DNA of 64,000 bases from a virus. Numbering within the stretch: position 1 is the first letter of the stretch; every line of letters starts with the position of its first letter. The stretch lies in the IMG/VR virus record IMGVR_UViG_3300045988_091674; one strand, written 5' to 3'. Under the pieces are notes generated by a model. That model was not told the DNA's origin. It saw nothing but the letters and a program-made list of their open reading frames with translations, and did no database searches. The position numbers were made by a program, and so were the translations under genes. Of this stretch, positions 16,122 through 54,953 are shown piece by piece.

Positions 16122-16808
16122 TTAATTATTGTTTGGATGTATTATGAAGGTACTCGTTTCTAATAGCAAATCTTTAAGTTCTATATCTTGATAATGCGTA
16201 TATGGAATGCGAATTATTGGGATGTTATTATCGAAGCAATAGTTATTCTTTTCAGTATCTCGAATTTGTTGACTTTCTTTTGTATGAATTTCATTTCCCC
16301 ATTTGCTATCCTAGAAATGCTATTTTCCATCATATTCTATAACATATTTATCCTATATAAAGAAGTCATATCGGAATAATGTACCATAAAAAATTTTTTC
16401 TTTAACAAAAGGAATTTTAGCATCTCGTAGTATTTCTGCAATCTTTTGCTCACCTAGAGATTTTATACATCCACAGCTTTTTGTATTTTCTTGTTGTAAA
16501 GAATTACCAGACACAATAATGGTATTTCCACAATCGCATTTGCACTTCCAATAACTTTTTGTTGATCCGTTTGGATTTTTCTTAGTGCCATTAAATTCTA
16601 TCACTGTTAATAATCCAAACTTCTATCCAACAAGATTTTTTAAATTATCATGTCCAGTTTTCTTTGCCGCTTCTTTTTGTAAGCATCCACAGCTCTTTTT
16701 ATGGCCAGATTTAAGGTCTGCGCTAGACGCATAAGTTTCATTTCCACAAGAGCATTTACATCTCCAAATAACTCCACCTCTATGATCTCGCTGCTTTGTT
16801 TCTTCCAA
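16122..16808 (-). CDS. zinc-ribbon-repeat endonuclease-like protein (paralog 1), four in-frame TAGs
   Basis: ORFs 16623..16808 and 16353..16604 are in frame, separated by TAG. Two WxCxCxCGN...SCGC zinc ribbons, then YDFFI-TAG-DKYVIEYDGK-TAG-HF... (PD-(D/E)xK-like). True stop is TAA at 16122-24. Confidence 0.6.
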
Positions 16809-16905
16809 GACGGTTAATTGATTAAATTGCTAACCAACTAAATTTATTTTTTTACCCAATTCAATCACCTCTAATATTAGTAAATGTTAGAGTAGATAAA
16901 TTAAA

Positions 16906-17460
16906 TCAATTTGTAAAATTTTTTATATCATTGATAATGTTGTCTAGTAAAACTGGATAGCTATTATGGGCATCAACTTCACAATGATAAATAATTCCTT
17001 TGTCCATATCAACAAAAGGATTAGTAGTATGAGTATGTCCGCAAAGATTTATAATTTTATTTTTTAGAGGTTTATTTAAATCATCAAGATTACCAGTTAA
17101 AGTGGGGAAATGAGACATATAGAAGTGATATTTCTTGTATTTAAGAGCAATAGCCCAAGCAGTTTCCATCACATTAGGAAGCTTGGCATACATTTTCTTG
17201 CGGCTATCCGTACAGTGGTTTCCAAAAGCAATGTGGAGTTTTCCATTCATAGAGGAAATAAACTCCTTATTTCTCTCAAGACCGTCTGCTCCACCGAGGC
17301 AGAGGTCCCCAAGAACATATACATCATCTTCTGGAGTGACAATAGAGTTATGCCTCTCGATAAGAGCAACATTCATCTCTTCAACAGAGTTGAATCCACG
17401 AGATTTATAGACAAATTCACGGTCATGCGAGAAGTGCCAATCCGAGGTTACGAAAATCAT
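16906..17460 (-). CDS. calcineurin-like metallophosphoesterase (possible 3'-phosphatase partner of Pnk)
   Basis: 184 aa. GDLCLGG and GNHC motifs. Overlaps the start of the kinase gene. Confidence 0.6.
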   Translation of the reverse strand: MIFVTSDWHFSHDREFVYKSRGFNSVEEMNVALIERHNSIVTPEDDVYVLGDLCLGGADGLERNKEFISSMNGKLHIAFGNHCTDSRKKMYAKLPNVMETAWAIALKYKKYHFYMSHFPTLTGNLDDLNKPLKNKIINLCGHTHTTNPFVDMDKGIIYHCEVDAHNSYPVLLDNIINDIKNFTN

Positions 17461-17990
17461 TTATCTCTCTCCTCCATTCCATGATGATTAATTCTTACTT
17501 CTTTAAATCCGTACTTATAAAGTTTAAATTCTGCGGGAGTGGGAGATCTATAGTTTCTAGCCATCTTCCTAATTGCGGACTCTGGGACTTGAGAAAATCC
17601 TTCTCTCAAGCTATTGCGAGCGATACAGGTATCAATCCCGCAATCGCAAACTTCGAAGACAAGTCTTGTTTTTCCGTCCGGCCGCAGTCTACCCAATAGC
17701 TTTGCTCTTGATCCTTGGGAAATATGAGTTGCGTCAACAAAGACGTAATCAATTCCGATTTCGAGACATTCGTTAATCTGACGGACAAATTCTTCGAATA
17801 CATCATTCTCTTTTCCGAAGTAACTTCCATCACCAACGAAAGATTTTCTTATCTCGTCACGGGAGATAATAGTAGTATGAAAACCATCCATTTCAAGCAA
17901 CTCAGCTTCTTTATGCGCCCAAGTAGATTTTCCACTACCGGGGATACCGACCATAACTTTTACTTCAATAGTCATACTGCTTTCCTCCAT
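17457..17990 (-). CDS. pnk: polynucleotide 5'-kinase (T4 Pnk kinase-domain-like)
   Basis: 177 aa. GIPGSGKSTWA is nearly identical to T4 Pnk GCPGSGKSTWA. Confidence 0.7.
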   Translation of the reverse strand: MEESSMTIEVKVMVGIPGSGKSTWAHKEAELLEMDGFHTTIISRDEIRKSFVGDGSYFGKENDVFEEFVRQINECLEIGIDYVFVDATHISQGSRAKLLGRLRPDGKTRLVFEVCDCGIDTCIARNSLREGFSQVPESAIRKMARNYRSPTPAEFKLYKYGFKEVRINHHGMEERDK

Positions 17991-18051
17991 TCATTTAACT
18001 TTCTATAAATATTATAATATATTTTTTATAAAATATCAAAAGATTTTTATT

Positions 18052-18939
18052 TTAAATCTCAACTGGTTGAATTAGTTCTTCAATATAAGTCCTACCTTCA
18101 TCTTTGAATAGAGGAATATTAAGGTCAATAAACCAATAGTGTTTAAAATGAATTGAGCCATCTTCTCTTTCCGTTTCTTCGCAGTCTTTTATACAACAAG
18201 AACCTCTCTTCAAATAGGTCGGTAGACTATTCCAATCTATCCCCTTTTTGGAAATAAGCATCTCTAAAATTTCACTACTGCACTTACCCTGAAGTTCACT
18301 ATGAGAAAAATTTGCTTGACCAACCATTTGAATAGAATTGCGAATGGCATCTAACTGTCGCCAGTAAATGAGATTTGTTACCTCTTCTTTTGGGATATTA
18401 AAAACACGTGCATCAAACATAGCACCTTTTGCGCTTGCCATCCGTAAAGTTTTCATATATTCTTGATGTTTCTGTCGGATTTCTACACTTTGCGGAGTTA
18501 GAGAACACTTCCAATCAACTTCGTATGCTTCAATCGCTCGATGAAAAGCTTTATTAAAAGCCATTGTCGCCATAGATGCTGCAACAGAGCACATCTTTTG
18601 AACTTCGTAGTCAAACCACGCTTCACTATTTAATTTCTTGTAATCAACAAGAATTAGAGTTATTTCATCACTTTGTGTATATCCAAGAACACATCCTTGA
18701 ATATTTCTGCACAAATACTCTGTAGTTTCTTGCATAGCTTCAACTAACACTTCGTCAAATGGTTTTTTAAATCCTTTAGTGAAGGTATGAAATGCTTTTC
18801 CATCAATTCTAATTGCTACTGGAGTTCTGCGCATGAGGTGAGTTTTAGGTACCTGTTCATAAAACTCCTTCATACGAGTACCAAGTTGGTCATTCATACT
18901 GTTTATCCTCCATATCAACCATAAAAATATGCTCGTCAA
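18052..18939 (-). CDS. Thg1-like protein (tRNA-His guanylyltransferase family / tRNA 5'-end repair)
   Basis: 295 aa. IRIDGKAFHTF matches the Thg1 RxDGRxFHxF motif. Confidence 0.6.
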   Translation of the reverse strand: MTSIFLWLIWRINSMNDQLGTRMKEFYEQVPKTHLMRRTPVAIRIDGKAFHTFTKGFKKPFDEVLVEAMQETTEYLCRNIQGCVLGYTQSDEITLILVDYKKLNSEAWFDYEVQKMCSVAASMATMAFNKAFHRAIEAYEVDWKCSLTPQSVEIRQKHQEYMKTLRMASAKGAMFDARVFNIPKEEVTNLIYWRQLDAIRNSIQMVGQANFSHSELQGKCSSEILEMLISKKGIDWNSLPTYLKRGSCCIKDCEETEREDGSIHFKHYWFIDLNIPLFKDEGRTYIEELIQPVEI

Positions 18940-19624
18940 AGGTATCGAGATTTAAGAGAACGGTTTGTCCAGTAAAGAAACTGCCACAATCAATATTTAC
19001 CTTATGGTCATTGCAGTACCAAAAAGCACCCTCAACATAAGAGTCTTCTCTCGCTCCAAAGAAATTTTTTAGACTTCCTCTATAGCCTCTAATCATACCG
19101 GGGATAGGAGTATGTCCATGAACACAGATAGTATTATTTTCATAGTAAGTATCCCAAATATGTTCTCTATCCCAGATTAAATCTCTTGTATTTGGATTAG
19201 AACCTGCTGTAAGCCCTGCATGACAAAGAGCTATTTTAACATCGTCTTTATTGCAGTATTCCATATAAGTAGGTAACTTACTTAAATAATTACACCAATC
19301 AGGGTTCGCACCATCACTTATCCAACCTTCAAAGGTGTCTTTCCCTCCATTAAAACAAAGCAAAGCATAATCTCTGTCGAAACATTCATACTTCGCATAT
19401 TCTCTCATTGCATTGACAAGCATATCTTCGTGATTACCCTTGATGTAGATAAATTGCGGATCTGCGGCAACTGCTTTAATGGTTTCCCAAGGATCAGGTC
19501 CCCGATCGCCGCAATCGCCCAGGCAATAAACTTTATCTTCTGGTTTTAAAAATTTCTTTACCTCTTGATAAAGACATAACATACCATGAAGATCACTAAT
19601 AGCGTATACGCTCACTTTAATCAC
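18890..19624 (-). CDS. metallophosphatase (PPP-family or diadenosine-tetraphosphatase-like)
   Basis: 244 aa. DLHGML, GDCGDRGPD and GNHE motifs. Confidence 0.65.
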   Translation of the reverse strand: MIKVSVYAISDLHGMLCLYQEVKKFLKPEDKVYCLGDCGDRGPDPWETIKAVAADPQFIYIKGNHEDMLVNAMREYAKYECFDRDYALLCFNGGKDTFEGWISDGANPDWCNYLSKLPTYMEYCNKDDVKIALCHAGLTAGSNPNTRDLIWDREHIWDTYYENNTICVHGHTPIPGMIRGYRGSLKNFFGAREDSYVEGAFWYCNDHKVNIDCGSFFTGQTVLLNLDTFDEHIFMVDMEDKQYE

Positions 19625-19687
19625 TTCCTTTATTATATTATACCATAATAAAATATAAAAATAAAGAGAGCGTAAAGCTCTCTTTAT

Positions 19688-20410
19688 TTAAAAGAAGGGG
19701 CAGATTGGCATTTCCTCTGTTTTATGTAGGTTTCTCTTGTGTCTCTGCTCAATATTTTTATATACTTCATACGGAGGAGTAATACGATATAGCAAAAAGT
19801 TATCAAGAGTTTTATAAGAAAAACCTAGATTCTCTTCATCTGAGAGTCCAGTTAATCCATCTTCTGGAACTTTTTCTATAAATTTCTCCGGTAGACCAAG
19901 TTCTAAACCAATCTCTTTAACTTCTGTTACTGTGTAATTGTGCAGAATTGAAAAATCTCCCGCGGAATCACCAAATTTGGTTGAATAACCAACATAATTT
20001 TCACTTCTATTACAAGTGTTTGCAACTCTACCATGTCGAGCAGCCGCGATGGCATAAAGAATATTCATTCTTTCTCTTGCTGGAACGTTACTTACAACTT
20101 GAGGAAGATTACGAATATCAGAGGGTAGGGAGAAAAAAGTTGCTTTGCAAGCCTCTCCAATGTTGATATTATAATGTTCTTTAATGCCTAGATACTCAAT
20201 AACTTCATTTGAAATATCAATGTCTGATTGATACCCTTGTGGCATTTGAACTGCAATTACATTTTCTGGCCCAATAGCTTTACAAAGCAGTGCGGCAGCG
20301 ACAGTAGAATCTTTTCCTCCAGAAATACCAATAACAGCTTTGCAGTCCGGGCCGTTGTCGATAAAATATTTTTTAATCCAGTTAATGATTCTTTGAACTC
20401 TTATTGTCAT
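19688..20410 (-). CDS. nadE: NH3-dependent NAD+ synthetase
   Basis: 240 aa with PP-loop SGGKDS. Confidence 0.75.
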   Translation of the reverse strand: MTIRVQRIINWIKKYFIDNGPDCKAVIGISGGKDSTVAAALLCKAIGPENVIAVQMPQGYQSDIDISNEVIEYLGIKEHYNINIGEACKATFFSLPSDIRNLPQVVSNVPARERMNILYAIAAARHGRVANTCNRSENYVGYSTKFGDSAGDFSILHNYTVTEVKEIGLELGLPEKFIEKVPEDGLTGLSDEENLGFSYKTLDNFLLYRITPPYEVYKNIEQRHKRNLHKTEEMPICPFF

Positions 20411-20415
20411 AAGAT

Positions 20416-22005
20416 TTACTCTCCCATCAGTCGATTCTTAATTGTATAAAAATCTTCCTCGTTTTCGCGTACAAAAACACCATCTTTTACTTTGAATTTC
20501 ATTACATTATCCTTATATTCGATGGCTTCTTTAAGAGTAAGATTTTCAACAAGCCTATATTGGCCCTCTGAGTCTTTAACAACCGCTACGCATCCACGAG
20601 GAGATTTTTTCCCAGGATCGGTTTTTGGCATCTTGTAGATTTGGATTTCATCTTCTCCAAGAATACAATCGGTAGCCTTAATTGCATAGCCTCTAGTGTC
20701 ACGAGTTACATATTGATAAGTATATGCGCCAATTCCAAAACAGATATTTGATACTGAAATAGAATTATTGACACACCAATTACATATTTTTTCAGTGATC
20801 TCGGGAGTGATCGCATCGCCATAAATAACACGAATACAAGAGGGAAGCTCAAAATAACCCTTTCTATTAAGGTTGCCGCCAAAAGTATCAAAGAGACTGA
20901 CAAGAGTTCCTTTACCCTCCGGGGAGTCAGGATCAACAGCAAAACTTGTGTCCCCGCAAATGATTTTTACTGGATCTCCGCTATCGGGGCGGATGGAAAG
21001 GCATCCATCCCGCTGCTCGATAATGTCTCTCAATGCAGGAACAATTTTAGATACTACACCCCAATAATCATATGTATCTGCTACATAAGTCATTGTCCCA
21101 GTAGGCTGAATATTGATAAGAAGATGGCGCAGGAAGAGCATCTCAGCAATAAGATTAACTTCCCAATTTTCAGAGAGGCAAGTATTGAGTAGAGCTTGCT
21201 CCTCGGCTTCTAGCTCACCATTGAACATCTGCGCTCTTTTCCATGCTACACCCTGTTCAACAACAGAGTGCTCCAGAGATGGAGTTCCCATTAGAGGAGG
21301 ATTATTCTCTAAATCTGCTCCATAATATTTCTCCAAAAGAAGATTAGAACCAATGGTCGCAGTCCTATCAAAAGACAAAGCGTGCGCGGCGCCAGAGATA
21401 TAGCCCGCTTCAAGTGAAGTGTGACCGCGGAGAGAGAAGTCACCGCACATATGAGGGAGAGCAGACATATCGTCACAGGTCATCTTAACATAAGGCTCGA
21501 TTAGCTTACGTCGATAGAAGGCTGTCGTGGCAGAAGTAGAAGGAAGCCAGTTATTTGCACTCCACTGATCTTCAATAAACTGCGGAAGCCATGCAAATTC
21601 AGGATCAGTAGAAAAGATAACATGATCTGGAATACCGATAGGAAGAAGTGTACCTTCGGGAACTCCCATAATTGAAATGGGAAGATAGCCAAGCTCATAA
21701 AGTTTCCTAAACTTGCTGAAATCTGCATAGCCAGGATGGAAAGTATCCTTGATTACCCTGTTCCACTCGCTTTCAAGCAGATCAATGGGCTGATTAAAAA
21801 ATTCTGCCTGCCAGTAATTAAGCAGTCGCTGGATGGTATATTGATGGCCAAACACCATAGTTTTGGCGCAGTCTTTATGATATTTATTGCTGCGAGCAGT
21901 CCAAGTAGAATACACCATCTTTGCGTCGGCAGGCTGCATTTTAACCGCATGACCAATCTTATAATAGTCTGCCGCAAACATAGGTGCTACATCAAAGAAA
22001 CTCAT
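20416..22005 (-). CDS. nicotinamide phosphoribosyltransferase-like (NAMPT/NadV)
   Basis: 529 aa. Size and context within an NAD-salvage block. Assignment by overall similarity pattern, not a single motif. Confidence 0.55.
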   Translation of the reverse strand: MSFFDVAPMFAADYYKIGHAVKMQPADAKMVYSTWTARSNKYHKDCAKTMVFGHQYTIQRLLNYWQAEFFNQPIDLLESEWNRVIKDTFHPGYADFSKFRKLYELGYLPISIMGVPEGTLLPIGIPDHVIFSTDPEFAWLPQFIEDQWSANNWLPSTSATTAFYRRKLIEPYVKMTCDDMSALPHMCGDFSLRGHTSLEAGYISGAAHALSFDRTATIGSNLLLEKYYGADLENNPPLMGTPSLEHSVVEQGVAWKRAQMFNGELEAEEQALLNTCLSENWEVNLIAEMLFLRHLLINIQPTGTMTYVADTYDYWGVVSKIVPALRDIIEQRDGCLSIRPDSGDPVKIICGDTSFAVDPDSPEGKGTLVSLFDTFGGNLNRKGYFELPSCIRVIYGDAITPEITEKICNWCVNNSISVSNICFGIGAYTYQYVTRDTRGYAIKATDCILGEDEIQIYKMPKTDPGKKSPRGCVAVVKDSEGQYRLVENLTLKEAIEYKDNVMKFKVKDGVFVRENEEDFYTIKNRLMGE

Positions 22006-22088
22006 AAAATCTTCCTTTCCTTATTTCTTTATTATATTATAACATATATTTTTATAAAAATAAAAAGCTCTCATAAGAGAGCTTTTTA

Positions 22089-22457
22089 TCAATTTTGAAG
22101 CAAGCTGAATAATGCTTCAATTCCTACGTATTCTGGCGCAATAATGCAAGTAATAATTGGAACACAAACTGTAATAATGACTGAAAGTATGGGCACGAAT
22201 GTAAGAATGTGCAGGTGCCATTTTTTAAAATCGACTTCAATCATTAGATATAGTATAAACCATATAATACTAGAAATAATAGCACCTATAAAAACCCCAA
22301 CAAAAATGTTAAATCCTAAATCTTTAACGGTTACGTACCAGCCATATTTAGCCAACCACATTGGAGCATTTTCCATAATAGTTTGAGTGGTTACTCCAAA
22401 AAAGTTAGCAAGAGACTGTAAAATAGAAGCCAACGTCTGCTCTAAAGTCAAACTCAT
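22089..22457 (-). CDS. small multi-pass membrane protein
   Basis: 122 aa with three hydrophobic segments. Confidence 0.4.
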   Translation of the reverse strand: MSLTLEQTLASILQSLANFFGVTTQTIMENAPMWLAKYGWYVTVKDLGFNIFVGVFIGAIISSIIWFILYLMIEVDFKKWHLHILTFVPILSVIITVCVPIITCIIAPEYVGIEALFSLLQN

Positions 22458-36132: not shown

Positions 36133-36207
36133 TGGCAGCGGAGGTGGGATTCGAACCCACTCCCGAGGTTTTAGAGACCCCTGCGCTAACCATTACGCTA
36201 CTCCGCA
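36133..36207 (-). tRNA. amber suppressor tRNA (anticodon CUA), tRNA-Trp-like scaffold
   Basis: Anticodon stem ggggt/acctc, loop CUCUAAA giving anticodon CUA, T-arm gtgggttcgaatcccac, CCA encoded. Loop and T-arm are nearly identical to the window's tRNA-Trp (47063..47138). Confidence 0.75.
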
Positions 36208-41443: not shown

Positions 41444-41848
41444 TTAGATTCGAACTAAGTATTTACTGGTATCCAATTTACAATTTGGGGCACTGGTTGT
41501 TCTCAAAGTTATTGATTTTACATTTCCAGCTTGAATCAAATCGTTCATTGGAATTACAAACATATTCATATCTTGATTAGCGCAAAACAACAAGTCTAAA
41601 GGATGGTTAAGTATCGAATCATAAACATTTCCTTTAGTTCCACCTGCGGATTTTAGATTAATTTCTCCAGTTTTCGATGATGTAAATTTGCACTAAACTG
41701 TTTGGAAAACTCCATCTTTTTCAATAACTAAATCATACCATTGAGTATCATTCAGTGGGACTGATACAGTGTATCCATTAGAACCAAAGTATCCTATTGC
41801 TAAAGATAGACCAGCATTTCCTTTCTACTGATTGTTTGTAATGACCAT
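41444..41848 (-). CDS. hypothetical protein with in-frame TAG
   Basis: RBS AGGAGG then ATG at 41848. Read with TAG as sense, ends in TAA at 41444-46. Not in the ORF track. Confidence 0.4.
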
Positions 41849-42101: not shown

Positions 42102-42187
42102 ATAATGCACATTTTTATGCTGAGTTGCGCTTCTCACCTTTCTCTTCTTCTTCCCCGACGGATGAAAGTATCTTCGGCATATTCGGT

Positions 42188-42307
42188 GGGGAGTGCAGGA
42201 CTCGAACCTGCGACATCGTGCACCATAAGCAAGTAGTAAAGATTGCTGTTACGGTCTTTGACAAGACCAAACTATTAACGCGCTCTACCTACTGAGCTAA
42301 CTCCCCA
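42188..42307 (-). tRNA. 120-nt tRNA-like gene with about 45 extra nt between the D-arm and T-arm
   Basis: Perfect acceptor ggggagt/actcccc, canonical D-arm tagctcagtaggtagagc, T-arm gcaggttcgagtcctgc. No canonical anticodon arm in the intervening 70 nt. Confidence 0.4.
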
Positions 42308-43188
42308 TATTAAAAACGATTTTGGTTAAGGTTAATCGTGAACCTTGTCAGTGTGCTACTACGCCAAAGGCGAGTCCTGCAGGTCTACTCGCCACTCTTT
42401 GAATGGTGGACGCTTTCAATCCTACATCCTGACAATAGAAGTCTTATTTACGATTTCTATACGTATTGCTTCTATTACTGGCACCGCTTCTTCGTGTTGA
42501 ACGAAGACCTCTTGGTTCAGAGCCAAGCGTGCAGACCGCTACACTAAAGCGGTATAAAGAAAATAGAATAACTTAAATATAACTATAATGCGGGCCTTCG
42601 CCCTACCAACTGTTTAATCTTCATCTATATTCAACCATTGAGGAGACAAGTCTGAGCTTCGAGGAGCGACCTCTAACTTCTTGCCCCAGAACTTTTGTTC
42701 CATTTCTCAAAAGGGATTGATTACCCTTACCTTTCACCCGTCATTCAGAAATTTGATTTTAGAACAAGCAATATCTTATTATCTAATCATCAAAGTCTTT
42801 GCACATTTGGGCTACTCAGATCATGACCTTATCTTATACCCAGATTTCTCTGGTTCAAGTGCAAACTCTCTTGTTGGCATTTCCAAGGATTGCCAAAGTT
42901 GCCACACTTTAACCTAACTTGGATTATTCCCCACAGGGGCGTCTATTGCGAGAGCGATAAGACAGTGTTTTTAGATGCGATTATGTCAGCACAACCCTCC
43001 TAGGAGCCGGTCATTCGACCACGAGAACTCTAATGTCACCATTAAAGCCCATTACGGATGGTTGGGGTATCCTCCATTATCCGATTCTCCCAGCCTAAGC
43101 TCGGATTGGGTTTCTCAGCCACATGACGTTGTGTCTTCACTGAGTTGCATTATAGCCATATCTAAGTTATTCTATTTTCAAGGTACAG

Positions 43189-45202: not shown

Positions 45203-45337
45203 AAACTTCCTTTCCTCTTGTTATGTAAATTATTCTATCTTGAAAAATTCTTCTTCAAATTTAAGTTTTTGCTATTTTATTTCTTCAGAATATCTTCCAT
45301 TTCTAGGAGTTAAGCGTATATAGTCTTTAATTATTAA

Positions 45338-45631
45338 CTAAGCTCTAGCTTTTTTCTTTGGTTCATTAAGATAACTGACAATCTCTTCTAATAAAGAAAT
45401 AGCCTTTCTCCGCTCTATCTTCCAAATATAAGCCTGTTTCCATTTTGGATTACGCTCATTTTTCTTGGAAATAACTCCTCCAAAATGCTCTTTAAGATAT
45501 TCTACAATTTGATATGTTGTACTAGACACTTCTAATACTGGATACCTAAACTATTTATCCTTGGTGAGAGTAATACTTCCTTCACCATCAATAATGCCAG
45601 CCAAATATCCTCTTTCTAATTCTGTCATATT
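45338..45631 (-). CDS. LAGLIDADG homing endonuclease (single-motif type), one in-frame TAG
   Basis: RBS GGAGG then ATG at 45631. LAGIIDGEGS motif. TAG at 45551-53 joins the sequence to ORF 45338..45529. Confidence 0.55.
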
Positions 45632-48433: not shown

Positions 48434-48509
48434 CTGGAGCTGGATAAGAGACTCGAACTCTTAACCTATCGCTTACAAGGCGATTGCTCTGCCTATTGAG
48501 CTAATCCAG
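48434..48509 (-). tRNA. tRNA-Thr (TGT)
   Basis: Loop CUUGUAA. Confidence 0.7.
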
Positions 48510-48820
48510 CATATAATGGTCGATATAAATCTCGGCCTAGATTAAAGAAGATTGACAGTATGCTCGTTTCCACACTATACACCAACCGCCAGCCTAATCG
48601 CCGGCCGTATGGGAATCGAACCCATTCCTCTGTCTTGTGGTTTTGGCCCCCTGTCCCTCTCGGCGTCCGCAGCAGTACCACCAAACTTGTCGGACTTATT
48701 AAGTTGCTTGTATTATCGCCGCAAGCGAACGGAATAGCTTAGTCGGTTTTCGCTATTAACACAAATCGCCTCGTTTATATGCGGCCGGCATATACAACAG
48801 TGTCTGTCCCGATTGGCGAT

Positions 48821-48912
48821 TGGCGAAGGGGAGAGGATTCGAACCTCCGGGTCACATTTCTATGGCCGAGGGATTAGCAATCCCTTGCATTCAACCACTC
48901 TGCCACCCCTCC
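48821..48912 (-). tRNA. tRNA-Ser (GCT), type II
   Basis: Loop UUGCUAA and a long variable arm. Confidence 0.7.
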
Positions 48913-49128
48913 AAATATGTTTCCTCTGCGTTTCATGGGCTTGGAACCAACACCTCTCGGTGGCCGCATTGAACATATAAGTTATCTTACCTATTGCTGG
49001 GGATAACTTCTGTTTCTGCGAAAATGAAATCATCAATATCCATCATTTTATTACCTCCTTAATACTTTTTATCTTGAGAATTAGCATTACCCAAAGTGCG
49101 CCACGTGGAGGCTTCTCAAATGCACTTC

Positions 49129-49200
49129 TTGCGGGAGCGAGAATCGAACTCGCGTAATTAAGTTTATGAGACTCAACTGAGAACCAACACCCTTCCCGCG
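49129..49200 (-). tRNA. tRNA-Met (CAT) #2 with C1·A72 mismatch
   Basis: Loop CUCAUAA. 1:72 is C·A, which is initiator-like, but the anticodon stem lacks three G-C pairs. CCA is not encoded. Confidence 0.5.
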
Positions 49201-49504
49201 ATATACGGCCATTAGAATTAAATTATAATGAAACCAAAATATATTTCTACTACTTAACGCCTAGACGCTCTTGAGTTGGTCTGCGTTGCCACTCCTCGCT
49301 TTTTATTCTCGCCTCATATATTCTATATTTTGGAATAACTCTAATAGCCACGGTACTCTTGCGCCCCTCCGCTGGATGTATCAGCCGGAACCGTTTCCCT
49401 TTATAAAGCAAGGGCGTGCCAATTAATAATTACATTCTTGCCGTACCATACTCTACGCACAAGAAAGACCCGTTTTCTCTGTTGAGCCGTGGAGTCCATA
49501 CGTC

Positions 49505-49581
49505 TGGTGACGCCTATGAGATTCGAACTCATATTGCCGGAGTGAGGTTCCGGCCTCCTATGCCATTTAGAGGAAGGCGCC
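49505..49581 (-). tRNA. tRNA-Glu-like (CTC), non-canonical C33
   Basis: D-arm and anticodon-arm layout resemble tRNA-Glu. Loop ACCUCAC. Confidence 0.4.
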
Positions 49582-49895
49582 ATATAACAAGCAGTTTATC
49601 GACTTGCTTAGGTCTCCACTTATTTAAGTATTGTCAATCTCAATAGTGCCACACTTTGTGAGCACCTGCACGGGAGTTCCCTTCAAATCTGCATCCTCAA
49701 GAGTTCCGTAATCACAAACATAGACATTTGTGTTACCAACCTTGCGAAGCTCATTCCCGCAATTAGGGCACTTATGTACCTTCTCAGCTTCAACCGCACA
49801 CTTAATACCAAAGGCCTGACCGAGCGCGACAAAAGAATTGAACTTCCCGTGAACATTCTTCATAATAAGATTTATCTCCTTTTCCTATTGATTTA

Positions 49896-49970
49896 TGGTA
49901 CTCGGTACGGGAGTCGAACCCGTGCTTCTGGCGTGAAAGGCCAGCGTCTTTACCGCTTGACTAACCGAGC
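49896..49970 (-). tRNA. tRNA-Glu (TTC)
   Basis: Loop CUUUCAC. Confidence 0.7.
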
Positions 49971-50180
49971 ATATTACGCACTTTTAGTATCTTACTTCTA
50001 TCATCTACTTTATTAAGATACTAACTTTTCTTCCAGTTGGTGAACAGCGGCGTCACTGAAAACCACCTATTTCTATTGAGGGCGGAAATAGATAATGCCC
50101 TATTGTTTTATGGCAATGAAATCAATAAAAACCTGTAATCATTAGATGGTATCATATGTATAATTGTTAGTAGATACCTA

Positions 50181-50256
50181 TGGTGGAACATACGAGGGTC
50201 GAACTCGTGACCTCCTGCTTGCAAGGCAGGCGCTCTCCCAACTGAGCTAATGCCCC
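50181..50256 (-). tRNA. tRNA-Ala (TGC)
   Basis: Loop CUUGCAA, G3·U70 identity pair. Confidence 0.75.
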
Positions 50257-50423
50257 ATACTATGGTTAAGATGATTGGTCGTGTCAATCAAGGAGAACTA
50301 CGCTCTAATTTATCGGCTACTACAGTCCAATGTGCCAGGCATCAACCCAAAGGGGACACCGCATTGCTGATTCACTTGCGCGCTATCGCTGCCTATATAC
50401 GACTTGCGATACTTTGTTCTTTC

Positions 50424-50460
50424 TCAACCTTGTATAAACATTATACAATATTTTTTATTG
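50424..50460 (-). promoter_or_regulatory. sigma70-type promoter (TTGAAA, 17 nt spacer, TGTATAAT) upstream of the tRNA-Ala segment
   Basis: Reverse complement ATTTGAAAAACAATAAAAAATATTGTATAATG. Confidence 0.5.
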
Positions 50461-50501
50461 TTTTTCAAATTGGCGATGACGACGGGGTTTGAACCCGTGA
50501 C

Positions 50502-50979
50502 CTTCGGCGTGCCTTAGTGATTATAGTGTGGATAGAATATCTTCAGCTTTAAAATCTTTAGCCTGCTTTTGAGTAGATAATCTTGTGGCAACAGTCCAAA
50601 ACTTAGTCTCTACTGTTCCAAAAACAGGGAACATATAAAACCTTCCATTAAACTCTGTCATAAAATAGTCTACATCTTTAGCAGAATAAGTCATTTTTTT
50701 AACTTTTCCATTTTCTCGCACTTCATATTTAGTACGAACAAGAAATCCAGTTTCCTCTACCGGCATAGCGTGTTTTACTTGAATTTTATAGAATTTGCCG
50801 TTCTTCTCTATCACTAAATCATACTTTTGATGATTTCCAATCGGAATAAGAACATTCCAACCATTCTCAATTAAATACGCCTAACATTTAAGCTCTGTAA
50901 TATCTCCAATCTGGGATGGATTTAATTTCTCCAATGCTATCAATCCTCCCTCTAAAGATATTCTCTATTAATCTCCAAG
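50502..50979 (-). mobile_element. putative self-splicing (group I-like) intron in the tRNA-Asp anticodon loop, carrying a 97-aa ORF
   Basis: Bounded by the tRNA halves. The U|...G| boundary nucleotides fit group I rules. ORF 50521..50814 lies inside. Group I core P-elements were not verified. Confidence 0.45.
50521..50814 (-). CDS. intron-encoded ORF (97 aa, unknown function)
   Basis: ORF located inside the intervening sequence of the split tRNA-Asp. No recognisable homing-endonuclease motif. Confidence 0.35.
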   Translation of the reverse strand: MIEKNGKFYKIQVKHAMPVEETGFLVRTKYEVRENGKVKKMTYSAKDVDYFMTEFNGRFYMFPVFGTVETKFWTVATRLSTQKQAKDFKAEDILSTL

Positions 50980-51119
50980 ACAGGCCGACGTTCTAGCCTA
51001 CTGAACTACGCCACCGTATAAGGCGAGGAAGGGTCGTACGCACCCCGTGTGCTTTGCGCCTCGTCGTTCACATATATCACACTTCTGACTTATTGGGCAT
51101 GGGAAATCAGTAGAAACCA

Positions 51120-51206
51120 TGGTGCGCATGATGGGACTTGAACCCATACGCTCTTACGAACACGAGCACCTCAAGCTTGCCTGTCTGCCTATTCCAGCAC
51201 ACGCGC
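51120..51206 (-). tRNA. tRNA-Leu (GAG), type II
   Basis: Anticodon stem caagc/gctcg with one A·C mismatch, loop UUGAGGU, long variable arm tgttcgtaagagcgt. Confidence 0.5.
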
Positions 51207-51364
51207 ATATTTCTATGGTATTGATCGAGTTCCAAGGCTTCCTCTTTTAATACTGACTAGCCATCATAAATGCTTGGCCATTTACGACAAGAAATCCAGT
51301 CTTCAACTACGGGCCATAGCTCCGCCGGTTTATATGGGTTTAAGACAATGTCACCGGAACCATC

Positions 51365-51441
51365 TGGTGTTCCCGGCGGGAATCGAACCCGCAACATCAT
51401 GGTTCTAAACCACGCGTGTCTGCCTATTGCACCACGAGAAC
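51365..51441 (-). tRNA. tRNA with anticodon TAG (Leu CUA) on a type-I body
   Basis: Stem cgtgg/ccatg, loop UUUAGAA, 5-nt variable loop, A73. Confidence 0.5.
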
Positions 51442-51566
51442 ATAAAAGAGCAACTATTTGTTTCAGAACTACCCGTCGCTCTATGGGCCAGCCTATTATT
51501 TTAGTTCGCAGTGGACGAATTGAGAGTTTAGGGTTAAAGTCACGACGCTACTCACAAACTTGACTC

Positions 51567-51640
51567 TGGCGGATCGCCATGGAGTTGAACCATGCTATCA
51601 AGGTTAACAGCCTTGCGTTCTACCGATGAACTAGCGATCC
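51567..51640 (-). tRNA. tRNA-Asn (GTT)
   Basis: Loop CUGUUAA. Confidence 0.7.
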
Positions 51641-51650
51641 ATATTGAGGA

Positions 51651-52172
51651 TTATGAAATCAAATCCTCAAGAGTTTTGAAATACTTCTCTTCATCAAATA
51701 AGATTGGCGTAAAATCATCTAAAGAAATTAGACCATTTTCAATTCTTCTGTGACAATTAGCACATAGCATTATACACTTTTTTGCTTCATCTGCATAAGC
51801 CTATTTACTTCTTGTAGTAGAAGAATTTGCGATACCAAAACTTTTTGTAGATGGGTCAACGTGATGAAAGTCGTATAACTGAGGTGCATCCCGCAATCCG
51901 CAGTAAGAGCATTTATGAGAAAAACCTTCCACCAATGCTAGCTTAATTCGTTTTCTAAAATTAACTACATTTTTTCCACTATTTTTCTTTAAATGCTACT
52001 TACATCCGCAGCTCTAAATAGCTCCAGAAGTTAAATGACCTGTCTAAACTTCTTTCTCGTTCCCACATTCACATCTACATAGCCAATATGTTTTACCACT
52101 TCTACTTGGAGCTTTTGAAACTGCTGTTAATGCTCCAAATTTTTGTCCAGTTAAATCCAACGCTGTCGGCAT
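51651..52172 (-). CDS. HNH homing endonuclease with N-terminal zinc-ribbon module, in-frame TAGs
   Basis: RBS AAAGGAGAG then ATG at 52172. MPTALDLTGQKFGAL...YWLCRCECGNE...SCGCK...DFHHVDP...CANCHRRIE. Ends in TAA at 51651-53. Not in the ORF track. Confidence 0.6.
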
Positions 52173-52340
52173 AACAATTCACTCTCCTTTATATAATATA
52201 TAAGAATTAGTGAATTATCTTTAGCTCACTTTACCCAAAAATTTTTCTGAGCTACCGACCCAAGCTCAAGGCAGAATAAATAAACTTTCTTAAACCAAAA
52301 TAAGCGTTTTATTTGTAAATAATTTGCTGTATCTGCCTTA

Positions 52341-52379
52341 TATAAATATTATAACATATTTTTTATTGTTTTTCAAAAA
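52341..52379 (-). promoter_or_regulatory. sigma70-type promoter copy (TTGAAA, 17 nt spacer, TGTTATAAT)
   Basis: Reverse complement of ccttatataaatattataacatattttttattgtttttcaaaaag. A roughly 160-nt leader precedes the HNH gene. Confidence 0.5.
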
Positions 52380-52650
52380 GATTCAGTTGTTTAGCTTCAT
52401 CATAGGAAATACCAAAGGTATCCTTAAAAACCTTGAGAAAGTTTTCCCACTGTTCCTCTGGCCCACCAATGCCGCCATTCATAAGCCAAAGGCTATCACA
52501 AACTACATCTTCATCGCTGTAACAGGACATGGCCTTAGCGGCAAGTTGCGCGAGGTATAATTTCTTATCCATAAACAACTTCCTCTCTCACTTTCTATAA
52601 ATATTATATCATATTTATAAAAGTTTTTCAAATAATTTCAAGGCACTAGA

Positions 52651-52724
52651 TGGCTTCCAAAATGGGATTCGAACCCATAACTTTTTATTTCAATTAAAAT
52701 GTCCAACCATTAGACTATTCGGAA
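52651..52724 (-). tRNA. tRNA with anticodon TGA (Ser UCA) on a type-I body
   Basis: Perfect stem tttta/taaaa, loop AUUGAAA, 4-nt variable loop, G73. Confidence 0.45.
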
Positions 52725-52786
52725 AATAACTTTGCTGTATGTGCCTTCTGTGATACCTCTTTCGAGGGCGTGCGGCGTTACGCCTA

Positions 52787-52881
52787 TGGTCCCGCGCCAG
52801 GGATTCGAACCCCAAACCTCACGCTAATCTGGCGCTAATACCGGGTATAAGCCGGCTGCTCTACCGTTGAGCTACCGCGGG
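52787..52881 (-). tRNA. 95-nt tRNA-like gene, anticodon TAT?, with a 23-nt extra region
   Basis: Canonical D-arm tagctcaacggtagagc, anticodon arm gccgg-CUUAUAC-ccggt. The long insert before the T-arm is not an obvious hairpin. Confidence 0.35.
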
Positions 52882-52952
52882 ATATAAAAGTGAGTATAAA
52901 GCCCTCACTTGCGGCTTATAAGTTCTGCTGCAACAGAACAACTCACATAAAT

Positions 52953-52981
52953 ATTATACAATATTTTTTATTGTTTTTCAA
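52953..52981 (-). promoter_or_regulatory. sigma70-type promoter directly upstream of tRNA 52787..52881
   Basis: TTGAAA (52976-81), exact 17-nt spacer, TGTATAAT (-10 at 52953-58). Confidence 0.55.
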
Positions 52982-53858
52982 CTTTCTTAAAAATCCAGCC
53001 TTTGGTATCTGGATTACCTTTACCGGTCTCCATGGCCGCGTAAATAACATCAAGAGCATGAAGAACCTGGGCCGCAGTTTTAAATCTGCCCGTATGAACG
53101 AACCCTTTTACTTCATAAATCTCTTTAAAGGGAATTTCACGCTCACCCTTAATCGCCACTCCCGCAATCTTATACTTATCGTCATCAATAGCAGGACAAT
53201 TCCTAATCGCTTCATTTCTGCGGGAACGCGGCTGTTTCGCCGTCAGTCTGCGATTCATCAGCTCTTCCGGGCTTGCAGGATTAGCCTTGCTTTTACCATA
53301 AGACATCTTGACCTTAGGTACTTTTACCGGCTCAATCCCATCAGGAAGAGTGTATCCATCAATATTTTCCCAAACGTATTTCAACATCCAGGCATCTTCT
53401 AAAGCATTATGATTCTGAATTGGATCCTCAGAAGAAAGTTTCATGGTCAGATACGCAGACCTAAGACCAATCGCATCCCTGCGAAAATGAGACGCCACCC
53501 TTTTGTCAACATTTTCACATCTATTGTGAATGTATTGCAGAGTAGTAAGAGCTTTCATATCAGTCGTAAAGCCCATAGAAGCTCTAAGAAAACCCCTATC
53601 ACTCTTGCCGTAGTGATAGAAAGTATTTTCTTCATCAAGAAAGGAAAGGAACTCTCTAACTCCTAACATTGCTTCTTCAAGACTAGGAGCCTGGTCTGCA
53701 TCTTCCTGAGAAACTCCTGTCAAAACCTTTATATTATGGTCAAGTTTCGTATGCGGACGAATGAGACTATAAAATGTATCTCCATTCTCTGTTACCATAC
53801 CAATAGAAATTGCTTCATTGGTGGTGCAATTAGCTTCCAGGTCGAGATAAATCTTCAA
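52968..53858 (-). CDS. DEDDh-family 3'-5' exonuclease (DnaQ/RNase T-like) with a C-terminal extension
   Basis: 296 aa. Exo I YLDLEAN, Exo III HNALEDA. Possible TTG start. Confidence 0.6.
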   Translation of the reverse strand: MKIYLDLEANCTTNEAISIGMVTENGDTFYSLIRPHTKLDHNIKVLTGVSQEDADQAPSLEEAMLGVREFLSFLDEENTFYHYGKSDRGFLRASMGFTTDMKALTTLQYIHNRCENVDKRVASHFRRDAIGLRSAYLTMKLSSEDPIQNHNALEDAWMLKYVWENIDGYTLPDGIEPVKVPKVKMSYGKSKANPASPEELMNRRLTAKQPRSRRNEAIRNCPAIDDDKYKIAGVAIKGEREIPFKEIYEVKGFVHTGRFKTAAQVLHALDVIYAAMETGKGNPDTKGWIFKKVEKQ

Positions 53859-53859
53859 A

Positions 53860-53920
53860 CTCAGAACTTCCTTTCCTTAACTTTCTATATATATTATATA
53901 ATAATTTTTTTTAATTTTCA
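53860..53920 (-). promoter_or_regulatory. sigma70-type promoter cassette copy
   Basis: TTGAAA-attaaaaaaaattatta-TATAAT then TATATAGAAAGTTAAGGAAAGGAAG. Confidence 0.5.
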
Positions 53921-54005
53921 AGAGAGGCGTAAAATCTAAAGTCTTTTCTTTACGCCTCTCTTTAGTGAGGGAAGTGTACTATTATTAAACTTTATACTGA
54001 ATAAT

Positions 54006-54953
54006 TTAATTACCCATACCCAAAAATCTTTCAATAATTTCTTGAATTTTTTCGTAATCTGTATAGGCGATTCTTAACAAAGGTATATTATGCTCTTTAG
54101 CATACTCAGTTTTTAAAGAATCTCTTTTTAAGTTATCCTCACTATACCACTAACTACTTGTATCAAAATGTTGCCTACCGTCATATTCAATTAACCCTAT
54201 AAGTCTTTCATTTTTGAAAATAGCAAAATCATATCTTAAATAAGATTTATCTTTTAAATCTTTAAATTTATATTCTCTTATAAAAGGTATATCATACTAA
54301 GTTAAAATTTCTGCTATCTTAGTCTCTCCGCGAGAATTTCCAATACATCCGCAACTCTGCGTATCATGATTCATCAGAGCACTACGGGATACTGTTTTTA
54401 TATTACCACAGTCACATTTACAAATCCAATATCTGTGATCATCTTCTGATCGTTTTAGAGCAGTTAATCTACCAAAACGCTATCCAGTAAGATCCCCTTG
54501 AGCTAAGCGCGTTTCAACTCCTATAGGCTAAACTATTTCTTTCATAATCTAGCCTGATATTTCTTTTTGTAGACATCCGCAAGATTTTTTAGCTCCGTTA
54601 TTTAATTCTGCGGTTTTTGCATAGGTTATATTTCCACAATCACACTAGCATTTCCAAAATACGGCAGTCCCAGTATGCGTTTGTTTCCACGAGTCTGTAT
54701 ATTCCTAGTCATAACCTAATACAGTTAATCTTCCAAATTTTTGTCCAGTTAAATCTTTCCTGTATAAAGTCCTAGAACATTTTGGACAAGAAGTTTTTGC
54801 TCCACTTGTCAACTAATTTGTTATAGTTATAACTTCATTTCCGCAGTCGCATTTACAAAGCCACTATGCTTTATTAGCTTTAGTGTTCTCTACTCTTTTA
54901 ATAACCAACAATTTTCCAAAACGCTATCCCGTTAAATCTTTTAATGGTGCCAT
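54006..54953 (-). CDS. zinc-ribbon-repeat endonuclease-like protein (paralog 3), multiple in-frame TAGs
   Basis: ATG at 54953. MAPLKDLTG-TAG-RFGKL, four WxCxCDCGN...SCGC repeats, C-terminal YDFAIF...IEYDGRQHF...RIAY. Ends in TAA at 54006-08. Length 948 nt, divisible by 3. Confidence 0.55.

Follow-up and report, generated by a model that had tools for sequence, protein, structure and literature searches.

Zinc-ribbon, nuclease-like genes of a TAG-recoded phage: probable free-standing homing endonucleases

What kind of genes combine arrays of one zinc-ribbon unit with different nuclease domains, and how are they read when every one of them is interrupted by TAG codons? This question is raised by a 64,000-nucleotide stretch of viral DNA (IMG/VR record IMGVR_UViG_3300045988_091674), referred to below as the window. 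Four minus-strand genes, here called A to D, hold nine copies of the unit. In our view A–D probably (about 0.8) represent free-standing homing endonuclease genes, carried by a phage in which TAG encodes glutamine. This reading rests on sporadic presence at fixed sites, on recent lateral transfer and on the fidelity of C and D to their loci. Judged by their sequences, the genes appear to behave as mobile selfish cassettes of a widespread kind, not as a new class of system.

Gene organization and the reading of TAG

Gene A (16122..16859, 245 aa; PHROG 374/559/9084/7140) comprises two zinc-ribbon units (16683..16841 and 16467..16634), followed by a Vsr-like nuclease domain (16122..16460). Gene B (24339..25202, 287 aa; PHROG search) has three units (25032..25184, 24855..24998 and 24678..24827) and a nuclease domain of the same type (24339..24671). 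The same holds for gene C (54006..54953, 315 aa; Pfam and PHROG), with units at about 54780..54935, 54573..54752 and 54345..54491 and the nuclease domain at 54006..54335. In gene D (51651..52172, 173 aa; Pfam and PHROG) a single unit (52002..52154) is fused to an HNH nuclease domain (51651..51911). The unit takes the form (D)LTGQ(K/R)FGxLTV ... WxCxC(D/E)CGN ... LxSG..(S)CGC. A six-frame scan for C.C.CG returned nine matches, all on the minus strand inside A–D, and no match outside these genes.

The family proposed in the initial annotation is thus real, as are the ribbon–HNH fusion of gene D (HH...N...CANCH residues, HNH matches in PHROG and Pfam) and the C-terminal motifs YDF/FDF ... E(Y/F)DGxQH ... 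RIPY/RIAY, which are present in A, B and C. Two details had to be corrected. The paralogues had been credited with two to four ribbons; the actual numbers are two in A, three each in B and C and one in D. Gene A had been given an end at 16808, but its start is a TTG at 16859, preceded by the ribosome site AGAGGTG. The extension adds a fifth TAG, and the corrected N-terminus MGKKINLVG(TAG)QFNQLTV fits the family consensus MGxxIDLTGQxFGxLTV.

The mutual identity of A, B and C is 33–41%, which points to old lineages and not to a recent expansion within this genome. Gene C matches more than 7,600 database proteins, a lower bound, and has matches in 279 GenBank phage records. The architecture is therefore very common, yet it has no characterized member. 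Most of the matching entries are labelled ‘hypothetical’ or, wrongly, ‘HNH endonuclease’.

As had been noticed at the outset, all members of the family contain TAG. All 25 stops that interrupt the four frames are TAG (5 in A, 6 in B, 10 in C, 4 in D), with no internal TAA or TGA across ~1,020 codons and no frameshift found in A–D. Once TAG is read through, each gene is a single minus-strand frame. The in-frame TAG codons coincide with glutamine positions that are invariant or shared among homologues, for example in DLTG-Q, W.C-Q-C, DG.-Q-H and I-Q-SCGC; one of these residues, Q261, is invariant in 42 sequences. None of the genes in the window terminates with TAG, and the window encodes a suppressor tRNA with the anticodon CTA (36133..36207, minus strand), which is required for the translation of all four genes. 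From this codon usage the phage is read as one that uses genetic code 15, TAG for glutamine. That A–D are decaying pseudogenes in the standard code is hardly credible. Table 11 does split each of them into pieces of 40–80 codons, and the database entries P0201 and P0212 are such fragments. However, decay is refuted by the codon data just given, and the cassettes are 100% identical in two genomes.

Predicted nucleases and the ribbon module

The C-terminal domain had been described as probably PD-(D/E)xK-like, a reading that a model with a non-nuclease fold was to refute. An AF2 model of P0001, a protein 97% identical to gene C, gives this domain a restriction-endonuclease-like fold of the Vsr type at a pLDDT of 91, and a Foldseek search concurs. 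The earlier call is supported and can be narrowed: the modelled fold places the nuclease of A–C in the Vsr-like (EDxHD-like) branch rather than in a generic PD-(D/E)xK group. Pfam DUF2726 (PF10881, PD-(D/E)xK clan, gathering cut-off 24.7 bits) is matched by C above the cut-off (26.3 bits) and by A and B below it (21.6 and 11.7 bits); 33 of 42 homologues match it at E <= 0.01. DUF2726, Vsr and 3r3p have been grouped in one PD-(D/E)xK clade (PMC3424549). In the 42-sequence alignment D242, E256, G259, Q261, D278 and K281 are invariant and H262 nearly so, and A, B and C all retain GE...(Y/F)DF...E(Y/F)DG.QH...D..K. The GE motif, D242, E256, H262 and D278 are compatible in order and spacing with the E-D-x-H-D motif, compared by sequence positions only. 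Searches of all PDB sequences with phmmer and with a 42-sequence profile gave no relevant match at E <= 10; what ties these proteins to I-Bth0305I and Vsr is a predicted fold. For gene D, two PHROG HNH families match at E 6e-23 and 6e-20, and Pfam HNH_2 scores 20.9 bits against a cut-off of 21. Residues C88, C91, H103, H104, C137, N139 and C140 are invariant among D-type proteins, with H141 nearly invariant.

The ribbon unit is ~55–60 aa long, a small zinc-stabilized β-barrel with the cysteine pattern CxCxC ... CxC, and it probably constitutes the sequence-reading, DNA-binding part of the proteins. Pfam finds neither NUMOD nor helix-turn-helix domains in the N-termini of A–D, which are occupied by β-rich zinc-ribbon units. 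Among homologues the arrays comprise 2–9 units, and some proteins carry 5–9 ribbons and no nuclease domain. One type of ribbon is joined to two or more kinds of nuclease, Vsr-like and HNH among them, and occurs without any as well. In 645 aligned units a rigid scaffold surrounds positions −1, +1, +7 to +9, +11 to +14, +16, +17, +19 and +21, numbered from the first cysteine, which are the most variable. We tentatively raise the possibility, rather doubtful at present, that the unit is a modular DNA reader, with about one unit per short stretch of bases and arrays of 1–9 units setting the length and sequence of the target. Zinc-finger and TALE arrays read their targets in such a modular manner. 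The suggestion is based on the variable number of units, on the rigid scaffold with its variable positions and on the fact that no close solved structure was found for the unit. If true, these proteins would be nucleases of a natural zinc-module type, and their recognition code could be read.

A possibly related module is known from CapR, a cysteine-dependent DNA-binding domain common to homing endonucleases of phage ICP1 (PMC8096241). Pfam reports the CapR homology domain (PF21817) in none of the nine units of the window. Among relatives of C and D there are scores above threshold, as in P0055 (30.6 bits; cut-off 24.2), precomputed matches exist for P0131 and P0141, and of 42 C-type homologues only one matches. 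CapR and the T5orf172 homing endonucleases of Vibrio phage ICP1 (PMC8096241) resemble our proteins in having a small cysteine-dependent module, DNA-binding in CapR and predicted to be so here, at the N-terminus of phage homing endonucleases, and nuclease-free derivatives occur in both systems. However, the CapR cysteines follow CxxC...CxC, whereas ours follow CxCxC...CxC and are tandemly repeated, and the nuclease partner in ICP1 is T5orf172/GIY-YIG-like instead of Vsr-like or HNH.

Two further enzymes are close in design. I-Bth0305I (‘EDxHD’ family, PDB 3R3P; PMC3239194) shares with A–C a phage origin and the order of parts, with a C-terminal nuclease behind an N-terminus that binds DNA (predicted for A–C), and the conserved residues of A–C resemble its E, D, E/x, H and D set in order and spacing as compared by sequence positions; its family also includes free-standing phage genes of the Hef type (PMC3239194). 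Its N-terminus is of the NUMOD/helix-turn-helix kind in contrast to the zinc-ribbon array of A–C, there is no detectable sequence similarity, and A–C are free-standing and not inside an intron. I-MsaI is found in Staphylococcus phage MSA6 and other Kayviruses; its depositors describe it as encoded by an intron of the terminase gene, and the retrieved stretch around it gave no Rfam intron match. Its nuclease domain is homologous to ours at the sequence level (BLASTP E 6e-24 overall; shared blocks SxGE..I, FDF, IEYDGxQHF and IPLxRI.Y), whereas its N-terminal repeats have another cysteine motif, CGYEW...CPKC. The I-MsaI record bears the label ‘function unknown’. That free-standing homing endonucleases shape the evolution of phage genomes is known; A–D are a new architecture within this known kind.

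Identical cassettes at fixed sites

The initial annotation had proposed a comparison of insertion contexts in related phages. In five close IMG/VR relatives this gave a positive answer, namely polymorphism with sharp borders and identical cassettes between diverged flanks. Only one relative, contig 3300045988_084596, has A, C and D. These cassettes are 100% identical at the DNA level in the window and in 084596 (1154, 1054 and 689 bp), while the flanking DNA is 56–86% identical. Against its own siblings, which are 98–99% identical, 084596 carries C and D as clean insertions of ~1011 and 621 bp. The two genomes, ~15–25% apart, thus record a very recent transfer, and the three base-identical cassettes define precise candidate target sites.

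Gene A is present in one of the five relatives and replaced by other genes in three, where a different 1267-bp segment stands in place of 16086..17084. The tract shared with 084596 (16115..17268, minus strand) is a 1154-bp exact match that continues nearly exactly further downstream; the phosphoesterase gene 16906..17460 lies within it with its 3′ part. Gene B is absent from all five relatives. The B segment (24349..25364, minus strand), which holds gene B together with the final ~22 codons, diverged in sequence, of the gene upstream, substitutes for ~223 bp with a 50-codon membrane ORF found in all five.

The mobile tract of C (54006..55059, minus strand) begins within the upstream gene (55030..55338), of which it takes in the final 30 nt, and extends through the stop codon of C. 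Beside the cassette, the upstream protein ends in ‘...LNII’ as opposed to ‘...LGITD’. The co-conversion tracts around C are very short (~30 bp or less), which fits repair between diverged sequences and also an exchange of the cassette by some other kind of recombination. Genomes that lack gene C also have the 3′ end of its frame (TTTTGGGTATGGGTAATTAA), so in some lineages the gene may have been lost by deletion. Two distant phage types have C-type genes (57% and 47% identical) ~80 nt downstream of the 55030..55338 orthologue, and the neighboring large gene there is only 41% and 31% identical.

In all five other contigs with D-type genes (62–69% identical), these lie 4–14 nt upstream of a tRNA-Asn(GTT) gene. 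The corresponding tRNA gene of the window (51567..51640, minus strand) starts 10 nt downstream of the D stop codon; the D-linked tRNA-Asn has a perfect acceptor stem and a sequence unlike the resident allele of relatives lacking D. Upstream of the cassette, a 17-nt 5′ stub of the resident tRNA-Asn (GGGTCGGTAGCTCAGAA; 52245..52261, minus strand) is left, and the cassette opens directly after it with AAATTTTTGGG. Truncated stubs of this kind precede AAAATTTTTGG, the conserved leader of the cassette, in the window, in L031 and in L027. The mobile tract (51612..52300, minus strand) ends within the tRNA-Asn gene, where contig 084596 has a chimeric tRNA-Asn. The strategy of the D lineage would be to invade a tRNA-Asn gene and to supply a replacement tRNA. 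Target-specific homing would predict that the same neighbor is retained in distant phages, as observed for C and D; random shuffling of cassettes would not.

T4 SegB and T5 F-Tfl are homing endonucleases in phage tRNA gene clusters. D resembles them in its tRNA array setting and is tied to one tRNA gene. To our knowledge, a layout with a replacement tRNA and a 5′ stub has not been described for SegB. I-Ssp6803I is located in a tRNA intron (PMC3424549). D comes from a different protein family than these enzymes; its cassette brings a complete replacement tRNA-Asn and leaves a 5′ stub.

Homing, its alternatives and the TAG load of nuclease genes

We infer the following course, including its cleavage sites, its route through double-strand-break repair and its timing by TAG. 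In a cell infected at the same time by a relative without the gene, the enzyme would cut the DNA of this relative at or beside the empty site: for C the small gene 55030..55338 at its 3′ end, and for D the tRNA-Asn gene. Recombinational repair from the carrier genome would then copy the cassette together with an adjacent cleavage-resistant allele, which would be, for C, the upstream gene with its ‘...LNII’ C-terminus and, for D, the replacement tRNA-Asn. The only indirect signs of such cleavage and resistance are these diverged alleles beside the cassettes. Since each copy contains several TAG codons, full-length enzyme is expected only in the presence of the suppressor tRNA(CTA) of the phage; production of the nuclease would be confined to recoded phages and probably to later infection.

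The same cassettes could instead be passive cargo, moved by homologous or illegitimate recombination at repeated promoter- or terminator-like intergenic elements, with the nucleases serving other ends such as the degradation of competing-phage or host DNA. TTGAAA-17-TATAAT promoters and hairpins indeed flank the variable genes and recur at several sites in relatives, genes other than these nucleases vary as well (the exonuclease 52968..53858, an SPFH-like gene in relatives), and the co-conversion tracts are short. However, we regard this as improbable: C and D keep their neighbor across phages with adjacent proteins of 31–41% identity or with different tRNA orders, the stubs and the chimeric tRNA mark breaks within the tRNA-Asn gene itself, and Staphylococcus phages have this nuclease domain in a protein annotated as intron-encoded. 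Matches of relatives to the CapR homology domain, together with the nuclease-free homologues of 5–9 ribbons, raise a different thought, that A–D are domesticated DNA-binding regulators which have lost nuclease function, in the manner of the satellite protein CapR, a repressor derived from homing endonucleases (PMC8096241). This is very improbable, as every invariant nuclease residue is kept in A, B and C and the HNH residues are kept in D; in addition, close relatives differ in whether they have the genes and can do without them, which is a misfit with a fixed regulatory role. Homing thus remains our preferred reading.

Other genes of the window are likewise homing-endonuclease-like. The initial annotation had counted GIY-YIG and LAGLIDADG genes toward a heavy load of such genes, and Pfam identifies both (3515..4426 and 45230..45628); two I-Ssp6803I-type PD-(D/E)xK genes (PF11645; 41444..41848 and 50521..50943) can be added. 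Gene D, both PF11645 genes and the LAGLIDADG gene all lie within the tRNA array. In Agate phages a group I intron endonuclease was reported to be preferentially recoded, and it was proposed that in-frame stops hold back the endonuclease until late (Borges et al., 10.1101/2021.08.26.457843). The present case is alike in that endonuclease genes are recoded, all eight homing-endonuclease-like genes being TAG-rich. It differs in that TAG is read as Gln rather than TGA as Trp, that the genes are free-standing rather than an intron endonuclease and fall into five nuclease classes, and that the enrichment is quantified over the whole gene set. With eight TAG-rich selfish nuclease genes, recoding as a gate on nucleases, or as their confinement, becomes testable in one genome. 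TAG occurs in 8/8 homing-endonuclease-like genes against 12/56 others in the window (Fisher p = 2.8e-5), and it makes up 41 of 92 Gln-type codons in the former against 32 of 403 elsewhere (p = 1.6e-15).

Gene architecture and the reading of TAG

The window is AT-rich (G+C 31-45%), and its minus strand holds almost all genes. Under the standard bacterial code, the regions considered here break up into ORFs of 40-80 codons. Straight translation of the minus strand gives one frame for each of four genes: A (16122..16859), B (24339..25202) and C (54006..54953), which join zinc ribbons to a Vsr-like nuclease, and D (51651..52172), which joins a ribbon to an HNH nuclease. TAG is the only interruption of these frames (A has 5 with its corrected start and 4 within the range first given, B has 6, C has 10 and D has 4) and their terminators are TAA or TGA. 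This translation bears out the set of three paralogues and one HNH fusion, all containing TAG, which the initial annotation had proposed. Its start for A at 16808 was misplaced since it began after a TAG lying within the first ribbon; the real start is TTG 16859, preceded by a ribosome-binding site. A range of 2-4 ribbons per paralogue had also been given: ribbons are indeed repeated in A-C, and their actual number is two in A, three in B and three in C, with a single one in D.

A six-frame scan of the window for the C.C.CG core returned nine matches, all within A-D and zero elsewhere. Every match belongs to a unit of ~55-60 residues which runs from (D)LTGQ(K/R)FGxLTV through a variable loop to WxCxC(D/E)CGN and LxSG..SCGC. 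A, B and C share the C-terminal domain SxGE..I...(Y/F)DF...E(Y/F)DGxQH...D..K...IP..RI.Y; in D the ribbon is followed by CxxC...HH...N...CANCH. A, B and C share only 33-41% pairwise identity; these paralogues are old lineages and did not arise by recent duplication.

None of the window genes terminates in TAG, one of the 30 tRNA genes (36133..36207) has the anticodon CTA, and the TAG positions of A-D are Gln in paralogues and database homologues, for example in DLTG-Q-(K/R)FG, WxC-Q-C and I-Q-SCGC. Together, these sequence features indicate that TAG is read as Gln in this phage (code 15). Q261 of the DG.QH motif, an invariant residue, is encoded by TAG in A and B. At the matching positions, D-type homologues have either TAG or a standard Gln codon (CAA/CAG), each gene holding between 0 and 5 TAGs. 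The suppressor tRNA resembles tRNA-Gln (47/74) and tRNA-Trp (46/75) with no clear preference for Gln, so the Gln assignment is based on the protein alignments.

Nuclease fold, conserved catalytic-type residues and the ribbon unit

In PHROGs, A, B and C strongly match phrog_374 and phrog_559 ('HNH endonuclease'), phrog_9084 ('homing endonuclease') and phrog_7140 ('intron encoded nuclease'); D strongly matches the HNH families phrog_2255 and phrog_3106. In Pfam, C reaches 26.3 bits for DUF2726 (cut-off 24.7), A and B match it more weakly, and D scores 20.9 bits for HNH_2 against a cut-off of 21. A search of NCBIfam yielded nothing useful. DUF2726, a PD-(D/E)xK family, was grouped by Steczkiewicz et al. 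with Vsr, DUF559 and the I-Bth0305I structure 3R3P (PMC3424549).

At least 7,652 database proteins match C at E <= 1e-5, and 385 D-type genes were retrieved. In a 42-sequence alignment of full-length C-type homologues, D242, E256, G259, Q261, D278 and K281 are invariant and H262 is nearly so. The AlphaFold2 model derived from this alignment, with the database homologue P0001 (97% identical to C) as lead sequence, is confident (pLDDT 91.2), and a Foldseek search with it agrees on a Vsr-type restriction-endonuclease-like fold. The PD-(D/E)xK-like nuclease suggested at the outset for the C-terminal domain is thus upheld. The 'EDxHD' family of I-Bth0305I is defined by E170, D196, N208, H213 and D222 (PMC3239194); the C-type GE, D242, E256, H262 and D278, in identical order and at similar spacing, may correspond to it. 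A PDB sequence search with protein C and the 42-sequence profile found no relevant chain.

Among GenBank phages, tblastn detects the family in 279 records, mainly of phages infecting Firmicutes (Staphylococcus, Enterococcus, Streptococcus, Bacillus, Lactococcus and Clostridium), where its members are annotated as 'hypothetical protein' or 'HNH endonuclease'. The homologue in Staphylococcus phage MSA6 is I-MsaI, annotated as intron-encoded in a split terminase gene and of unknown function. In the I-MsaI locus as fetched, Rfam detects no intron, so the 'intron-encoded' label is based on the depositor's annotation.

For the ribbon unit, a close solved relative is absent. The Pfam 'CapR homology domain' (cut-off 24.2) scores 30.6 bits in P0055, a C-type relative, and is among the precomputed matches of two D-type relatives. 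CapR is a cysteine-dependent DNA-binding domain found in a satellite repressor and at the N-termini of ICP1 phage homing endonucleases, and mutation of its four cysteines abolishes DNA binding (PMC8096241). As the window's own units lie below the Pfam threshold, DNA binding by the ribbons is something we infer. Matches to the ribbon by itself extend to phages of Proteobacteria and cyanobacteria and to an archaeal virus; homologues comprise 2-9 units, some of them without a nuclease. The ribbon scaffold is rigid, with high variability at a few positions. It is conceivable, if rather unlikely, that the units form a modular array which reads DNA. Two database homologues, P0009 and P0003, consist of 7-9 tandem units without a nuclease domain, the units being near-alike save at a few positions.

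Identical cassettes in diverged genomes, site fidelity and tRNA-Asn scars

Queried with 13 kb and 8 kb of window sequence, megablast returned tRNA matches only and no relative among GenBank phages; relatives were therefore fetched from IMG/VR by way of neighbouring proteins. Five close ones come from a single metagenome (3300045988_080502, _091188, _084596, _081499 and _073130), and further ones are more distant. B is carried by none of the five (0/5): window 25364..24349 stands in place of ~223 bp encoding a 50-codon membrane ORF, and the last ~22 codons of the gene upstream of B differ from the relatives. C is missing in four relatives, where ~12 bp correspond to window 55051..54039, and D in three, where 55 bp correspond to 52245..51572. 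In three relatives a small membrane ORF and an SPFH-like gene take the place of A, and in these the 3' half of the phosphoesterase gene upstream of A is diverged.

The only carrier of A, C and D among the relatives is contig 084596. It is 98-99% identical to its siblings up to the borders of clean insertions, ~1011 bp long for C and 621 bp for D. Against the window, its DNA neighbouring the cassettes is 56-86% identical and the cassettes themselves are base-identical. Exact tracts, found by a k-mer method, extend over 1054 bp for C (55059..54006, which takes in the final 30 nt of the gene upstream and ends with the C stop codon), 689 bp for D (52300..51612) and 1154 bp for A (17268..16115, nearly exact for 3 kb beyond). 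Protein identities of 97-98% to the relatives are artefactual, because tblastn scored TAG codons as stops against Q in the query. Motif scanning of all 25 fetched IMG/VR loci places the family in 084596 and, at a different site, in the distant locus L005, and nowhere else. The presence or absence of A-D among relatives is the homing signature that the initial annotation had named, and the identical cassettes within diverged flanks agree with it.

Another variable segment, 52747..53857, contains an RNase T-like exonuclease gene (52968..53858) and a tRNA-Ile(TAT). It is replaced in all five close relatives by 418 bp with a 75-codon ORF and another tRNA-Ile; L005 has the RNase T-like exonuclease at the same place as the window. 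Near-consensus sigma-70-type promoters (TTGAAA-17-TATAAT; 53850..53921, 52942..52984, 52603..52631 and 52348..52376) sit in repeated intergenic elements which are found again at several places in relatives and border variable genes.

In empty relatives, the insertion point of D lies inside a tRNA-Asn gene. The window retains a stub comprising the first 17 nt of this tRNA (52261..52245), followed by the cassette, and a complete, different tRNA-Asn (51567..51640) begins 10 nt past the D stop codon; the cassette brings its own replacement tRNA. In 084596 the left junction is as in the window and the right crossover falls within the tRNA, and the chimeric tRNA-Asn is no longer recognised by ARAGORN. 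D-type genes 62-69% identical to D, on five other contigs with differing tRNA neighbours, all lie 4-14 nt upstream of a tRNA-Asn(GTT); two farther homologues (41-42% identical) have a tRNA-Asn or tRNA-Ile on the upstream side. The leader of D-type cassettes is conserved starting at AAAATTTTTGG, and 5' tRNA stubs of varied length precede it in the window and in the loci L031 and L027. Repeated breakage and repair within the tRNA-Asn gene would leave such a pattern. The resident tRNA-Asn of D-less relatives (12701..12777 of L001, contig 3300045988_091188) has two mid-acceptor-stem mismatches, GGGTCGG / CCTTCCC, and may itself be a recombination product.

Site fidelity also extends to C. Genes 57% and 47% identical to C lie ~80 nt downstream of an orthologue of the small gene 55030..55338, in phages that share only 41% and 31% identity with the window in the large gene next to it. 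The C-termini of the small gene read ...LNII or ...LNL in carrier alleles and ...LGITD in empty ones. On the distant contig L036, two ribbon and Vsr-like genes (1707..2582 and 3001..3945) flank this orthologue on both sides. The exact 11-mer ATTTTTGGGTA occurs at only two window sites, the left edge of cassette D (52232..52242) and the last codons of C (54017..54027); it was rejected as a significant shared element, its count with one mismatch (4) not being above the chance mean of 2.5. The spacer behind the small gene in C-less genomes (AAAATTTTGGGTATGGGTAATTAAGATA..., L001 11601..11640) resembles the D-type cassette leader. This may be chance, or a trace left by a previous cassette.

TAG enrichment, proposed mechanism and neighbouring elements

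The window encodes eight homing-endonuclease-like genes of five nuclease classes: A-D, a GIY-YIG gene (3515..4426), a LAGLIDADG gene (45230..45628) and two PF11645 (I-Ssp6803I-type) genes (41444..41848 and 50521..50943). TAG is present in 8/8 of them versus 12/56 other genes (Fisher p = 2.8e-5), and accounts for 41/92 of their Gln-type codons versus 32/403 elsewhere (p = 1.6e-15). The other TAG-bearing genes include lysis, tail-fibre-like and ThyX genes; replication and nucleotide-metabolism genes have zero TAG. Recoding as a brake on a selfish nuclease is not a new idea: Borges et al. described a single intron endonuclease that is recoded in Agate phages, which recode TGA, and proposed that in-frame stops delay production until late (10.1101/2021.08.26.457843). 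In the window, the idea would extend to an entire group of free-standing genes. A promoter difference between TAG-rich and TAG-free genes is not convincing: near C and D, TAG-free genes do have strong sigma-70-like sites in front of them, but the total number of sites is the one expected from shuffled sequence.

We favour the reading of A-D as free-standing homing endonuclease genes in a phage which reads TAG as Gln. The ribbon array would bind DNA next to the target, the Vsr-like or HNH domain would cleave the empty allele during co-infection, and recombinational repair would copy the cassette plus the adjoining resistant allele. Translation would need the suppressor tRNA, so production could be delayed or confined to recoded phages. 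Passive cassette shuffling at the repeated intergenic elements is less well supported, and so is the view that A-D are domesticated regulators. The same applies to pseudogenes, a reading which is excluded by interruptions consisting only of TAG at Gln positions, the lack of TAG terminators and the tRNA(CTA). Homing endonucleases that stand free in phage genomes are already known, as are nucleases of the Vsr-like and HNH types and the occurrence of such genes in tRNA clusters. In the searchable literature we found no description of a tandem zinc-ribbon array with a Vsr-like nuclease as a characterised enzyme, of the D-lineage layout of tRNA-Asn stub and replacement tRNA, or of uniform TAG enrichment across the selfish nuclease genes of one genome.

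The PF11645 gene 50521..50943 lies in a 468-bp insertion (50511..50979) which splits a tRNA-Asp in the anticodon loop after CTGTC (flanks 50471..51015). This tRNA is intact in L001 and L002, L004 and L006 have the insertion, and ARAGORN calls no tRNA-Asp in the window. A group I intron is not supported, since Rfam gave no match at either the gathering threshold or E <= 10, and the ORF leaves only ~45 nt of the insertion. Unless an unknown splicing route exists, the insertion looks like an intron-less invasion inactivating the tRNA.

Lastly, the tRNA array contains a full-length ROOL RNA (42573..43168, minus strand; Rfam RF03087, 350 bits). At 42187..42306 (minus strand) there is a 120-nt Rfam tRNA match uncalled by ARAGORN, which may be a tRNA with an insertion. 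A phage tmRNA (45715..46045, minus strand; Rfam, 71.6 bits) immediately precedes the LAGLIDADG gene; tmRNAs also occur in L001 and L005, where the tag peptides are DNDYFENYLAA and DNSYFENHLAA. The TAG-free block 18052..24255 includes a nicotinamide phosphoribosyltransferase-like gene of 529 aa (20416..22005), whose relatives served as synteny anchor, and a putative isochorismatase/nicotinamidase-like gene (23716..24255), recognised by eye.
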